IMG/VR virus record: IMGVR_UViG_3300004369_000002
Location: 32,001 to 96,000 of that record
Length of the DNA stretch: 64,000 nt
Direction: 5' to 3' (one strand)
From: a virus
Shown here: positions 60,417-64,000 of the stretch, piece after piece
Position numbering within the stretch: the stretch's first letter is position 1
Layout of the letters: each line of letters opens with the position of its first letter
Translations under genes and position numbers: made by a program
The notes under the pieces: generated by a model
Databases searched by the model: none
What the model was told of the DNA's origin: nothing
The model's input: only the letters and a program-made list of their open reading frames with translations

Positions 60417-60516
60417 TGAATGCGCTATATTTATTGCCCCTACCGTTTTTGCTGATCCTAATCATGGTCCTCACTAACTGGGAATAAAATCAGCAAATTA
60501 CCCAAAATCAATCATT

Positions 60517-60846
60517 ATGGATATTTCTAAACAACTTCGCTATGAAGCGACAGGTGAAAACGGTGTGCTCCCCCCGCCCAGATATATCCCCCTAATGCTC
60601 AGTGCCGCCAACGAAATCGACGACCTCAACCACCAACTCCAAAAAAGTGACTCTGAATACGTCGACAACGCCCTCCGAGCACTCCAACAACTAGACGAAG
60701 AAACACGCAACGCCGACCGCCTCGCCGACGCCCTACATTTGCTCGCTGGTGCCAAAGGAGTACCCGCCCATCTGGTAGACATAGTTTTCGACGCCATCGA
60801 AAATTACGACAATTTGCGCCAAATTCGCCCAATATCAGACACCTAG
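60517..60846 (+). CDS. hypothetical helical protein
   Basis: AANEIDDL phage-type motif. Confidence 0.55.
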   Translation: MDISKQLRYEATGENGVLPPPRYIPLMLSAANEIDDLNHQLQKSDSEYVDNALRALQQLDEETRNADRLADALHLLAGAKGVPAHLVDIVFDAIENYDNLRQIRPISDT

Positions 60847-60856
60847 AAGGATAATC

Positions 60857-61327
60857 ATGAAAATGCGTTTACTAGCCGCCGCAACAGTCTCCGGACTACT
60901 CGGTTTGACCGCCTGCGGAGGAACCGAGACCGTCTACATCGTTAGCGAAACCGCACCAGCCAGCGAAACAAAAGCGCCGGAAACAACTGTCGCCCGAACC
61001 ACAACGACCCGCCCAGTAGAAACACGACCGCCCGCAAACGTACCGTCCTACTCAGGCGATTACGACCCTGAAATGTACGACGATTTCCTGTGGACAAGCG
61101 TTAATGACTTCTGGTGGCTGTTCAGCAAAGATCAACTCCTGACGATGGGACTGCTCGTCTGTGAAGCCTTCGATTCGGGAGCCACGCTAGACGACGTCAC
61201 CAATGAACTGCTCAGCGCAATGGCCAACACAAGCACCATCTACCTGATGGAAGGACTCGCCGCCGTCACCGCTGGAGCAGTCACCTTCCTCTGTCCGGAA
61301 CACGCCTGGTGGCTCAACACCATCTAA
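60857..61327 (+). CDS. lipoprotein with DUF732-like domain
   Basis: signal peptide with LTAC lipobox, Thr/Pro linker, G..VCEAFDSG...AVTFLCPEH. Confidence 0.75.
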   Translation: MKMRLLAAATVSGLLGLTACGGTETVYIVSETAPASETKAPETTVARTTTTRPVETRPPANVPSYSGDYDPEMYDDFLWTSVNDFWWLFSKDQLLTMGLLVCEAFDSGATLDDVTNELLSAMANTSTIYLMEGLAAVTAGAVTFLCPEHAWWLNTI

Positions 61328-61354
61328 CAACTATCTAGATAAATCTATCCGCAC

Positions 61355-61636
61355 ATGAACGATATTCAAAAATACTTGGACCGAACACTTCGAACCTCTG
61401 TCGAAGCAGCCCAACTCACGCGCCTCAACGCGTCACGACTCGCATCCTGGGCCCAAGCACACCAAATCCCCCACATGCACACCCAAGACACCCTCACTAC
61501 ACCAATCTCACTCCACATCTACGGGCGAACAAAAATGCTCATCGCCCGAGAGGGCGACTGGATCATTAAACACCCCACCCGCGGCTACGACGTCCTACCC
61601 GCCCCCATCTTCACCCACAACTACACAACAACATGA
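61355..61636 (+). CDS. conserved phage protein
   Basis: AREGDWIIK...IFTHNY motif. Confidence 0.6.
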   Translation: MNDIQKYLDRTLRTSVEAAQLTRLNASRLASWAQAHQIPHMHTQDTLTTPISLHIYGRTKMLIAREGDWIIKHPTRGYDVLPAPIFTHNYTTT

Positions 61637-61890
61637 TCTCCTACTTCAAACGACGCAAACTCAAACACCAACCAATCGTCGACCTCACCACCTACAACAT
61701 CTACGAAGACGTCATCACCGAATACCAATGGCTACACCGCCAATACCGGTACATCTCCGCCCGAGCCATCGCCCAACTGGAATGCAACCCCACCTGCGCC
61801 TGCGACGAAACCCTCCCCATCACCGGAATCCAATGCGAAACCTGCCAAATCATCGAAGACTACGAAAGACTCACCAAATATGACAAGTAA
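61633..61890 (+). CDS. hypothetical Cys-rich protein
   Basis: C..TCAC...CETC. Confidence 0.55.
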   Translation: MISYFKRRKLKHQPIVDLTTYNIYEDVITEYQWLHRQYRYISARAIAQLECNPTCACDETLPITGIQCETCQIIEDYERLTKYDK

Positions 61891-62152
61891 CGAAACCGCC
61901 GACTACCAATACTTCTACAGTGACAGCACCTACAGCCTGATGCGTCTCTCCGAACACAACCACGGGCTCAGAGAAAAAAATGCGGCCCTTTACAACGCCC
62001 TCGTCGGGCTACGAGACGCCGTCACCAACCACAACGAACCCAACAAAACGCTCAAACAAACACTCGGGCGACACCGAAGCGAATGGCCCTACCTGTGGGA
62101 CCAAATCGACCGAGCGTTAGACACCCTCAACGATTATGAACAAAATTTTTGA
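61880..62152 (+). CDS. hypothetical protein
   Basis: HRSEWPYLW motif; operon packing. Confidence 0.55.
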   Translation: MTSNETADYQYFYSDSTYSLMRLSEHNHGLREKNAALYNALVGLRDAVTNHNEPNKTLKQTLGRHRSEWPYLWDQIDRALDTLNDYEQNF

Positions 62153-62428
62153 CATCATCCTGACTAGCGTCGCAATCGGCGCCTTCATCGCGTTCTGCTT
62201 CGCTCTCGCCAAAGCAGTCACCAGCCAAGATGACTTTTGATACTTTCCTCACCGCAGCGTTGACAACCTACTTCATTTGCGGCATACTGATCGCCCTATG
62301 GAGCACACGACGCAAATAAGCAACGTGTTCGACCTCAGCGAATACCGCAACAAAAAAAATCGGGGCATCGAACAAGCAAAACAACAACACCCCACCAACC
62401 ACAATCCAGATAAATCTAACCGCACCAA

Positions 62429-62917
62429 ATGATCACAATAGAACTAGAACCCTGGGAATACGAACACGCCAGCAACGTCGGCATCCGCCGATACACAGCC
62501 AACTGGACCAAACCAGACGCCCCCCACTACAAAAAACAACTCATGGAAGACGACCGCACCGCCCAAGTCGCAGCAGCCATCTGCGAACTCGCAGTCGCCA
62601 AACACACCAACCGCTACTGGCACGCCCACATCTGGCACCACACCGAACACAACAAATACCGCGATCTCCCCGACGTCGGAAAAAACATCGAAGTCCGCCG
62701 CATCAGAACACAAAAACAAGCCGCAATCCGCAAACACCAACTCGGCAAAAACCTCGTCATCTGGGTCGCCGAAACCATCCCACCCGAACTACGCCAAGTC
62801 AAACTCCACGGCTGGCTCAAACACGACGACGCCTGGGAACAAGGAACCCCATCCACCTACTCCCCAGAAACCACACGAGTCATCTCAACCCAACAACTCA
62901 ACCCCCCACAAATCTAA
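62429..62917 (+). CDS. PD-(D/E)XK-like hypothetical protein
   Basis: CELAVAK...LPDVGKNIEVRR. Confidence 0.55.
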   Translation: MITIELEPWEYEHASNVGIRRYTANWTKPDAPHYKKQLMEDDRTAQVAAAICELAVAKHTNRYWHAHIWHHTEHNKYRDLPDVGKNIEVRRIRTQKQAAIRKHQLGKNLVIWVAETIPPELRQVKLHGWLKHDDAWEQGTPSTYSPETTRVISTQQLNPPQI

Positions 62918-62934
62918 CCAAAAAGGAACACGCC

Positions 62935-63213
62935 ATCAAAAAATACACCCCCACCCCCAAAAACGAAATCATCCAACACCTCAACAACACCGAACAAACC
63001 ACCATCACCTACGACAACCTAGACGAAGCCCTCATCGGCATCGGAAGCCAACACACCAAACCCCCCATCGCCATCTACTCACACCAACTCATCATCGAAA
63101 CACTCATCAAACAAGGCATGACACCCGACGAAGCCATCGAATACACCGACTACAACATCATCGGACAATGGATCGGCGACCAAACCCCCATCATCCTCTA
63201 CGACCACCACTAA
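62935..63213 (+). CDS. conserved phage protein with apparent ATC start
   Basis: 92-codon frame containing DNLDEALIG...GMTPDEAIEY.DYNIIG.WIGDQTP; AAGGA 7 nt upstream of ATC. Confidence 0.6.
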   Translation: MKKYTPTPKNEIIQHLNNTEQTTITYDNLDEALIGIGSQHTKPPIAIYSHQLIIETLIKQGMTPDEAIEYTDYNIIGQWIGDQTPIILYDHH

Positions 63214-63323
63214 CCAATCAGATAAATCCAACCAAAACATCGGACAGAAAAATATGGCACAGCACCGCCGCCGGTTTTGGGGTGCGCTCCGAAAGTCCCG
63301 CAGGGGTAGGGGGGTGGGGTGGT

Positions 63324-63352
63324 CGAACGTGTGTTCGTCGAACGTGTGTTCG
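63324..63352. promoter_or_regulatory. two tandem LexA (SOS) boxes
   Basis: CGAAC-GTGT-GTTCG at 63324-63337 and 63339-63352. Confidence 0.7.
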
Positions 63353-63357
63353 GTTGG

Positions 63358-63419
63358 TTGTCCACAGGGTTTTCCACTGTTTTCACAGGGTTGGGGGGTG
63401 GTTTTGGGGTTTGTCCACA
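63358..63419 (+). other. DnaA-box cluster, putative origin
   Basis: TTGTCCACA at 63358 and 63411; degenerate TTTTCCACT at 63370 and GTTTTCACA at 63379. Confidence 0.65.
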
Positions 63420-63511
63420 GGTTTTTGGTGTAGGTGGGGTTGCGTTTAGGCTTGTTTGTTGATAGGGTTGTGTTTGTTATTGTTATCTGATTCTTTTGGA
63501 AGGAGTTTGTT

Positions 63512-64000
63512 ATGCGTATCTTGTTTTGTGGTGACATTCATGGGAATGCCACTCAGTTGCGTTTCGTGTACAAGACCGCCGAGGCGCATGGTTGCGAGTT
63601 GATCTGGTCGTGTGGTGACTTTGGGTATTGGCCTCACATGGATAGGGGCCGATCGTTTTTGGACACCGTGGACGTACTGGAGGAGATGACGGGTATCCCG
63701 TTGTATTGGACTGACGGCAACCATGAGAACCACGATCTGTTAGATCGTTTGTTGTTGGAGCATGGCGATAGTGCGCCTATTGCGACGAGTGAGGGGTCGT
63801 CGTGGGTTCCTCGTGGATGTGTGGTGACCCTGGATGGGGTGACGTTCATGTCGTATGGGGGCGGGTATTCGGTGGACTGGCAACGACGCACGGAGGGGGT
63901 GTCGTGGTGGCGTCAGGAGTTGGTGGATGAGGGTCATGTGTTGGATGTGTCTGATTCACCCGTGGATGTTCTTGTGACGCATGACACGCCTTTGGGTAAG
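63512..64000 (+). CDS. calcineurin-like metallophosphoesterase (partial, runs off the window)
   Basis: GDIHGN, GDFG, DGNHEN, LVTHD motifs; AAGGAG RBS. Confidence 0.9.
   Translation, partial: MRILFCGDIHGNATQLRFVYKTAEAHGCELIWSCGDFGYWPHMDRGRSFLDTVDVLEEMTGIPLYWTDGNHENHDLLDRLLLEHGDSAPIATSEGSSWVPRGCVVTLDGVTFMSYGGGYSVDWQRRTEGVSWWRQELVDEGHVLDVSDSPVDVLVTHDTPLGK

Follow-up and report, generated by a model that had tools for sequence, protein, structure and literature searches.

An extreme and abrupt reversal of nucleotide strand skew within a conserved non-coding element among the replication genes of an uncultured phage

Results

An abrupt change of strand composition at a single site

The stretch of DNA analyzed here, referred to as the window, comprises 64,000 nt (bases 32001–96000 of the 104,839-base IMG/VR virus record IMGVR_UViG_3300004369_000002) and belongs to an uncultured phage, of which the record represents an estimated 71%. 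Close to the right end of the window, in the replication module between the primase-helicase gene and the gene for the single-stranded DNA-binding protein (SSB), the + strand switches, at almost all positions that are free to vary, from A/C to G/T, irrespective of gene orientation. This skew flip is real and extreme. It has a defined position, a sharp boundary and a single polarity, it is independent of the genes that it covers, and its footprint is conserved in related phages, yet evolutionarily labile.

In sliding windows, the + strand at 62.9–63.1 kb has a GC skew as low as −0.68 and an AT skew as high as +0.60, and within a few tens of bases both reverse, to a GC skew of +0.56 and an AT skew of −0.60 at 63.3–63.5 kb. 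The minimum of the cumulative keto (G+T) walk puts the change point at position 63272, between ...caccgccgcc and ggttttgg.... The size of the flip (delta) is about 1.0, compared with a maximum of 0.45 in 50-bp block shuffles of the genome. The G+C content is similar on both sides. The A/C-richness of the + strand begins at about 56 kb, and absolute GC skews of up to 0.68 and AT skews of up to 0.64, mostly changing together, extend over about 3.7 kb.

The first-pass annotation of the window, which was made from the letters alone and had proposed sliding-window and third-position analyses of this region, described a gene in which every codon except ATG and TGG ends in A or C, and a following phosphoesterase gene with mostly G/T-ending codons. 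Counting bears out both statements. In the 92-codon gene at 62935–63213 the third bases are C in 66, A in 24, G in 2 and T in 0 cases, so that 90 of the 92 codons end in A or C, the exceptions being only ATG and TGG; the encoded protein contains neither Val nor Phe. The preceding gene (62429–62917) has 152 A/C-ending codons out of 162, and nine of the ten exceptions are again ATG or TGG. On the other side of the flip, the third bases of the phosphoesterase gene are G (111), T (83), C (45) and A (11), that is, 194 of the 250 codons end in G or T. Against a binomial background given by the third positions of the genome itself (A+C fraction 0.551), the respective probabilities are 5e-21 for 62935–63213, 5e-28 for 62429–62917 and 4e-26 for the phosphoesterase gene. 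The keto skews at codon positions 1, 2 and 3 are −0.39, −0.33 and −0.96, respectively. Thus, positions 1 and 2 are much less skewed than position 3, which argues for a mutational cause.

Toward the flip, the third-position keto skews of successive genes are −0.25, −0.54, −0.50, −0.27, −0.27, −0.50, −0.45, −0.66, −0.86, −0.53, −0.88 and −0.96. The progressive increase in A/C-richness that had been noted at first pass therefore stands as an overall rise, but it is only roughly monotonic. The G/T-richness that had been assigned to the + strand right of the flip also needs a restriction: it applies to the phosphoesterase gene, but the G/T-rich block extends for only about 1 kb, from 63273 to the end of that gene at 64264. 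Exactly at the gene end the composition abruptly returns to A/C (record position 96270, equivalent to window position 64270, just past the window; compare L002:6264, where L-numbers denote loci fetched from related uncultured phages, 1.17 Mb in total). The A/C-rich domain right of 64264 covers genes on the + and the − strand, and its third-position skew of −0.61 fades to about 0 across 6 kb. A similar three-domain pattern (A/C, G/T, A/C) was seen in L048; neither of the two models considered below, initiation of DNA synthesis and R-loops, accounts for the renewed A/C domain.

The bias follows position and strand

As the first-pass annotation had argued from the identical direction of transcription on both sides, comparative sequence analysis indicates that the bias is set by position and strand, and not by the gene or by the direction of transcription. 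This is evident from inverted and relocated orthologues as well as from an unskewed sister with the same genes. One relative, termed G1/G2, is available as a composite of about 136 kb from two overlapping contigs (loci L112–L117 and L108–L111; G1 and G2 are 99.4% identical). The primase-helicase gene and orf215 are located left of the flip in both phages, on the + strand here and on the − strand in G1/G2, and in both the + strand is A/C-rich. Accordingly, the third-position skew of the primase-helicase coding strand is −0.25 here and +0.33 in G1/G2, the latter equal to −0.33 on the + strand. The orf104 gene is found left of the flip on the + strand here (−0.50) and right of the flip on the − strand in G2, where the + strand has a skew of +0.36. 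The phosphoesterase gene abuts the flip here (+0.55) and in L007 (+0.42), and is 4.3 kb away in G2 (−0.43), whereas the sequence surrounding its orthologues in L003–L006 has an overall keto skew of about 0. Orthologues far from such a site, when checked, did not show the same codon bias. Likewise, an origin of the two sides from different genomes found no support, as the G/T-richness already begins within the conserved non-coding element irrespective of the adjoining gene. An asymmetry of the transcription type, with a G+T-rich coding strand that follows gene orientation, is not observed, as the left-arm + strand genes are A/C-rich and inverted orthologues reverse sign.

In a tree of the 162-aa protein encoded at 62429–62917, the sister L029 falls in the same well-supported clade as the phage analyzed here. 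It carries the SSB and primase-helicase genes, orf215, orf104 and the 162-aa gene in the same order and on the same strand, with third-position skews of about 0, and has no flip element. The substitution comparison with this unskewed sister, an analysis of the kind suggested at first pass, gave a one-way result: relative to L029, 51 silent third-base differences remove a G or T and none adds one, whereas control pairs differ in both directions. The proteins are affected as well, with 9 Val residues compared with 19 in L029, and a fraction of K, N, T, P, H and Q residues of 0.38 compared with 0.25.

The flip in related phages

Flips from A/C to G/T were found 0–0.8 kb downstream of the 162-aa gene in L028, L031/L034, L035, L047 and L048, and directly upstream of the phosphoesterase gene in L007. 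The layout of L007 is the same as here, that is, flip, LexA-like boxes, DnaA boxes, promoter and G/T-rich phosphoesterase gene, with phosphoesterase proteins that are only about 45% identical. In the tree of the 162-aa protein, extreme skew occurs in at least three clades and is interleaved with unskewed sisters. Since the order A/C then G/T is invariant under reverse complementation, such flips can be counted on any contig. The 1.17 Mb of fetched loci contain six A/C-to-G/T flips with a delta of ≥0.6, at about five distinct sites (L031 and L034 are near-identical), and no G/T-to-A/C flip of that size. Across whole genomes, only A/C-to-G/T flips, with deltas of 1.0–1.17, exceed the block shuffles.

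The change point is sharp and lies in a conserved non-coding element here and in four relative lineages. This element of about 55 nt was aligned with L031, L047 and L035 and is kept in four other lineages; the motif [AC]AGTCCCG is present at the flip here and in L007, L031/L034, L035 and L047. RNAalifold detected no shared structure in the conserved flip element. The phage analyzed here, L007 and L048 (with five DnaA-like boxes) have clusters of DnaA boxes 90–200 bp to the right of the flip, and a perfect TTGACA-17-TAnnnT promoter is found at the matching place, 90–274 bp right of the flip, in L031, L028, L048 and L007. The genome of Mycobacterium phage Optimus (cluster J), which encodes a phosphoesterase homologue, has no flip, its largest delta being 0.20. 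Polarization of substitutions by parsimony with L035, L047 and L031 gave no result, the sequences being only about 60% identical.

Several additional observations were made in the relatives. In L079 and L081 the 162-aa gene has a skew of the opposite sign (third-position skew +0.3). In L053, a further A/C-to-G/T flip (delta 0.69) is present at about 15950, which is 9.6 kb downstream of the 162-aa gene. When the present record is compared with G1/G2, with the 162-aa gene as the reference point, the head, tail, primase-helicase and other modules differ in orientation or place, with rearrangement end points around the flip region. At L124:16607-18070 there is a gene for a full-length homologue of tryptophan halogenase (PF04820, E 6e-98), which is seemingly unusual in a phage.

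Genes and elements around the flip

Most of the window is occupied by long + strand genes. The large terminase and head genes are at 2–23 kb of the record, and the SSB gene, identified from its translation, is 5 kb right of the flip. The features of the region are as follows (window coordinates; aa, encoded amino acids; ORF, open reading frame; skews are third-position keto skews).

54902–56647, + strand: primase-helicase gene (Pfam domains Toprim and AAA_25)
56651–60416, + strand: outer, weaker A/C-rich left arm downstream of the primase-helicase gene, with ORFs of 215, 104, 845 and 91 aa (skews −0.54, −0.50, −0.27 and −0.27)
60517–62152, + strand: middle left arm, five small genes of 109, 156 (DUF732), 93, 85 and 90 aa (skews −0.45 to −0.86)
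62429–62917, + strand: 162-aa gene (phrog_18407), the conserved left neighbor of the flip in relatives
62935–63213, + strand: 92-aa gene consisting almost only of A and C (phrog_13182, E 1.6e-26)
63246–63300, no strand assigned: conserved element of about 55 nt that contains the flip point and ends in GAAAGTCCCG (63291–63300), located by cumulative walk and alignment
63303–63352, + strand: G-tracts (63303–63322), followed by two abutting LexA-type boxes TCGAACGTGTGTTCG (63323–63337 and 63338–63352), from sequence and repeat search
63358–63419, + strand: DnaA-box cluster with perfect TTGTCCACA at 63358 and 63411 and degenerate TTTTCCACT (63370) and TTTTCACAG (63380)
63440–63511, + strand: promoter-like TTGCGT-17-TAGGGT (63440–63468), AT-rich stretch and ribosome-binding site of the phosphoesterase gene, from sequence and GC profile
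63512–64264 (the window ends at 64000), + strand: metallophosphoesterase gene (phrog_1649, E 3e-33; skew +0.55)

Matches to phrog_13182, phrog_18407, DUF732 and phrog_1649 indicate that the skewed + strand ORFs are real genes. Among the middle left-arm genes, matches were obtained to DUF732 (gene at 60857–61327), phrog_658 and phrog_1810. The 92-aa gene has no ATG, GTG or TTG upstream of its conserved domain and is not among the ORFs that begin with these codons. Judged from the sequence, an ATC 7 nt downstream of AAGGA is the only plausible start, and the canonical start codon may have been removed by the loss of G and T. Nearly all homologues of phrog_13182 in cultured phages are from Bacillus phages.

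The 162-aa protein is probably a nuclease of the PD-(D/E)XK fold. Its structural model (pLDDT 90) has I-Ssp6803I homing endonuclease (Z 6.3), NhoI (6.1) and Hjc (5.6) as top fold matches, and the conserved residues of the family are E53, D82 and E88-V-[RK]. Relatives of the protein are encoded on 129 viral contigs, and a comparison with cultured phages gave no match. Cultured phage genomes were also searched with the DNA of 60.5–64 kb, again with no match.

The exact sequence TTGTCCACA occurs three times in the window, two of the copies being at the flip, 53 bp apart. These two DnaA boxes are located 86–147 bp right of the flip and match perfectly the actinobacterial consensus, as reported for M. 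tuberculosis and S. coelicolor (PMC4285127). The two LexA-type boxes are near-perfect matches to actinobacterial LexA sites (consensus TCGAAC(N4)GTTCGA in M. tuberculosis; PMC3381160) and are situated upstream of the phosphoesterase promoter; similar boxes are present in L007. Their position suggests SOS control of the phosphoesterase transcription unit. Together with DUF732 and a WhiB gene in a close relative, these DnaA-box and LexA-box matches suggest that the host is probably an actinobacterium. The DnaA boxes are followed by a region of 30–38% GC (63451–63510), which coincides with the promoter and the 5′ leader of the phosphoesterase gene. Rfam and tRNA searches of the window region found nothing. 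A tRNA-like attP core in the motif GGTTGCAGTCCCG was considered and rejected, as ARAGORN gave no tRNA in the window. A further motif, CAGATAAA(T/C)C(T/C)AACC, lies beside small left-arm genes (62407–62422 and 63217–63232 here, L031 at about 10775, L047 at about 10549 and 11028) and could be a promoter or a processing signal.

Discussion

Possible causes of the flip

An amino/keto skew in which GC and AT skews occur together is the product of an excess of C-to-T and A-to-G changes on one strand. At the flip, the affected strand is the one that is displaced by outward DNA synthesis, which is also the non-template strand of outward RNA synthesis, and is the opposite of the strand exposed by 5′-to-3′ resection. 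The reading that we favor, albeit with somewhat less than even confidence, is a local initiation zone for DNA synthesis with long-lived displaced single strands. In this scheme, a strand-asymmetric substitution pressure would spread outward over 1–6 kb from a fixed site in the replication module, so that on each side the strand running 5′ to 3′ away from the site would lose A and C and become G/T-rich. Coding sequences would follow, with silent sites almost saturated and proteins partly adapted. The site would be an origin-like element, equipped in this lineage with host DnaA boxes, from which nascent strands would diverge, and the displaced parental strands would be single-stranded for long enough, or often enough, for deamination to cause C-to-T and A-to-G changes, as in the vertebrate mitochondrial heavy strand. 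We infer both single-strandedness as the cause and DNA synthesis, rather than RNA, as its source. Our preference is based on a change point that is sharp, conserved and tied to a specific site, on the occurrence of DnaA boxes in three lineages and on the location within the replication module; the polarity of the flip also fits DNA synthesis outward from the site.

Several observations weigh against an initiation zone. The skew is local, without replichore-scale asymmetry in the 105-kb record or the 136-kb composite relative, and the short G/T block of about 1 kb, followed by an A/C-rich domain that fades rightward, is not predicted by a simple bubble. In most relatives, no DnaA boxes accompany the flip. 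The two flips of G1/G2 are separated by about 30 kb, and the second lacks DnaA boxes and any other origin-like motif. It is located next to a tRNA gene, where a + strand operon converges with a − strand operon that includes WhiB (Pfam E 4e-15); the flip (L108:598-671; about 66030 in reverse-complemented G2) is 40 bp from the 5′ end of tRNA-Ile(UAU) and 20 nt past the WhiB stop codon. A clade of the G4 type has only the right arm, and its flip is inside a − strand ORF. Moreover, the flanking genes mostly point toward the flips, that is, head-on to outward forks. G1 and G2 show no increased density of single-nucleotide polymorphisms around the flips, in a small sample in which saturated sites cannot change further. 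Compared with a DnaA-dependent origin, a cluster of boxes of the host consensus is present, but a skew of origin polarity over the replichores is not: it fades within 1–6 kb, and there is no genome-wide V-shape. A classical single replication origin is thus not demonstrated, given the local skew, the G/T block of about 1 kb, the genes directed toward the flips and the lack of genome-wide replichore skew. The first-pass proposal of a bidirectional origin with a G/T-rich leading strand therefore survives in part. Its positional reading was right, and the polarity and the DnaA boxes 86–147 bp right of the flip agree with it, but a single origin for the whole genome is not borne out by the missing replichore skew, the two flips in one relative, the inward-pointing genes and the absence of boxes in most relatives. 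Altogether, an origin is plausible but unproven.

The main rival to an initiation zone, in our judgment an unlikely but serious one, is the formation of R-loops, which could explain the runaway size of the skew. Untranslated read-through RNA from the operons entering the flip, G/U-rich beyond it, would pair with the C/A-rich template and expose the G/T-rich non-template strand to deamination, so that the skew would reinforce itself; translated sense mRNAs would not have this effect. The gene arrangement that is awkward for outward forks is what this model expects: genes converge on the flips in the left arm here, at the second G1/G2 site and in the G4-type clade, and in several lineages only about 0–120 nt separate the flip from the final stop codon of the operon that runs into it. 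Leftward genes are found on the right side of the flip in the lineages whose left arm is strong, whereas the identified genes of the unskewed L029 are mostly co-directional; L029 does, however, apparently contain a small convergent ORF (by eye) and no skew, and the G4-type clade has converging leftward genes yet no left arm, with its flip inside a − strand ORF. The tRNA-Ile gene, which is untranslated and presumably transcribed at a high level, begins 40 bp from the second flip, G-tracts start right after the flip here, and R-loops are favored by G-rich non-template strands (PMC3787257). No + strand intrinsic terminator-like site was found at the end of the left operon, consistent with read-through, but a strict search for leftward promoters near the flip yielded no consistent match in the lineages scanned, only single unrelated ones in three of them. 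In addition, the A/C-rich coding strands of the left-arm + strand genes are the reverse of ordinary transcription-associated bias, and the phosphoesterase gene is G/T-rich even though it is translated. Rather improbable, in our view, is a process like that behind GRINS, the intensely skewed repeats of bacterial genomes (PMC8256042), perhaps error-prone or biased repair synthesis or gene conversion, acting on single-copy phage DNA from a fixed site. Common to both are intense, correlated GC and TA skews with a third-position maximum, abrupt changes and an amino-acid shift (Gly, Val, Cys and Trp versus Pro, Thr, His and Gln; PMC8256042), as well as the actinobacterial host group. The conserved neighbor of the flip is a PD-(D/E)XK nuclease-like gene, and endonucleases overlap 15% of actinobacterial GRINS (PMC8256042); furthermore, the flip doubles as a mosaic junction, its right-hand neighbor being any of several different genes in relatives. 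However, the genome contains no duplicate of the skewed region, the two sites of G1/G2 are not copies of each other, and GRINS show both polarities on one strand, in contrast to the exclusive A/C-to-G/T order here. The mechanism of GRINS is itself unexplained, so that they offer a resemblance rather than a cause.

Two further explanations fare worse. It is very improbable that the flip is a physical end of the genome or a site of repeated double-strand breaks, made by cos or pac cleavage or a nuclease cut, with the skew resulting from end resection and resynthesis. An end would suit the conservation and high G+C content of the non-coding flip element, the adjoining nuclease-like gene and the fact that the contigs are linear fragments; yet 5′-to-3′ resection would expose the + strand on the left, and deamination of a surviving 3′ tail would be expected to give G/T followed by A/C, the opposite of what is observed. 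The resection and resynthesis suggested by the first-pass annotation thus seem to have the wrong polarity. Contigs from at least six independent samples also continue across the site uninterrupted, 73 kb separate it from the large terminase gene, and one genome has two such sites. We give even less credence to the absence of any local process, with the two sides differing in history, the G/T block having been recently inverted or imported, or with selection acting on mRNA or protein composition. The right-hand gene content does vary between relatives, and the G/T block ends abruptly at a gene end with A/C-rich DNA next to it, as an inverted segment would. Inversion of the block was nevertheless rejected, as L007 retains the arrangement at deep divergence: at about 45% phosphoesterase identity, silent sites would have re-equilibrated. 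The start of G/T-richness in the non-coding element, regardless of the gene that follows, and the similar G+C content on both sides also speak against different histories, and the fact that genes on either strand take the composition of the arm excludes selection on mRNA. Explanations of this kind are largely refuted by the inverted and relocated orthologues, the L007 arrangement and the comparison with L029.

Relation to known nucleotide skews

The published phenomenon closest in signature is GRINS (PNAS 2021, PMC8256042), repeats with copies more than 80% identical within one cluster that have been linked to gene conversion and show both skew signs in no fixed order. They are defined as regions of >500 bp with correlated GC and TA skews of a mean absolute value >0.15. 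The region described here has such skews and also the third-position maximum with a matching amino-acid shift, but not the repeats, as a blastn comparison of 92–97 kb of the record with its complete sequence did not reveal another copy. Thus, the likeness consists in abrupt, kilobase-scale, correlated GC and TA skews in functional actinobacterial coding DNA, maximal at third positions and with the same amino-acid shift; the differences are the single-copy DNA, the anchoring of the flip at a conserved non-coding site, the invariable order of A/C then G/T and the place in a phage replication module.

With a bacterial oriC, the flip shares the polarity, the sharp switch, perfect DnaA boxes of the host type nearby and adjoining replication genes. 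However, the skews around oriC amount to a few percent over whole replichores, compared with 0.6–0.7 overall and about 0.9 at silent sites here, fading in a few kb, and the flip can be one-sided, can occur twice in one genome and lacks DnaA boxes in most relatives. The asymmetry of vertebrate mitochondrial DNA, which replicates by strand displacement, is classically attributed to deamination of C and A on a displaced strand that is exposed for long periods, graded by exposure time. Its A/C-rich and G/T-rich strands are comparable to the two arms at silent sites, and protein composition is likewise affected (PMC4182315; PMC3269012); it involves, however, a whole genome with one sign, and not local mirror-image arms in a genome of about 140 kb. 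Finally, the GC skew associated with R-loops at gene ends and bidirectional promoters is also local, at the boundaries of transcription units and accompanied by G-tracts, but there the G-rich strand is the non-template (coding) one (Ginno et al. 2013; PMC3787257), whereas here the left-arm coding strand is C/A-rich and gene orientation is ignored. A search of the literature for similar skews in phages turned up no account of such flips. We regard the flip as a new form of intense local nucleotide skew that is anchored to a site.

As a tentative generalization, which we regard as possible although on balance doubtful, fixed sites in actinobacterial phages may nucleate a self-reinforcing process that acts on one strand and rewrites several kb on each side into mirror-image two-letter alphabets, A/C and then G/T, either through the single-strandedness of R-loops or strand displacement or through a biased repair synthesis related to that of GRINS. 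Such 'skew domains' would form an undescribed class that recodes genes, shifts protein composition, removes canonical start codons and marks the start of a specific DNA transaction. If the flips are starts of DNA synthesis, origins could be located base by base, from sequence only, in uncultured large phages, and a replication mode with long-lived displaced strands would be implied. If the cause is R-loops or a GRINS-like process, the flips would offer a simpler, single-copy and site-anchored system for a mechanism that is still unexplained in GRINS. In either case, the flips show that a local mutational pressure can bring silent sites to about 96% of a single base class, can alter the amino-acid make-up of working proteins, with Val halved and Phe absent, and can mislead phylogenetic trees built from such genes.

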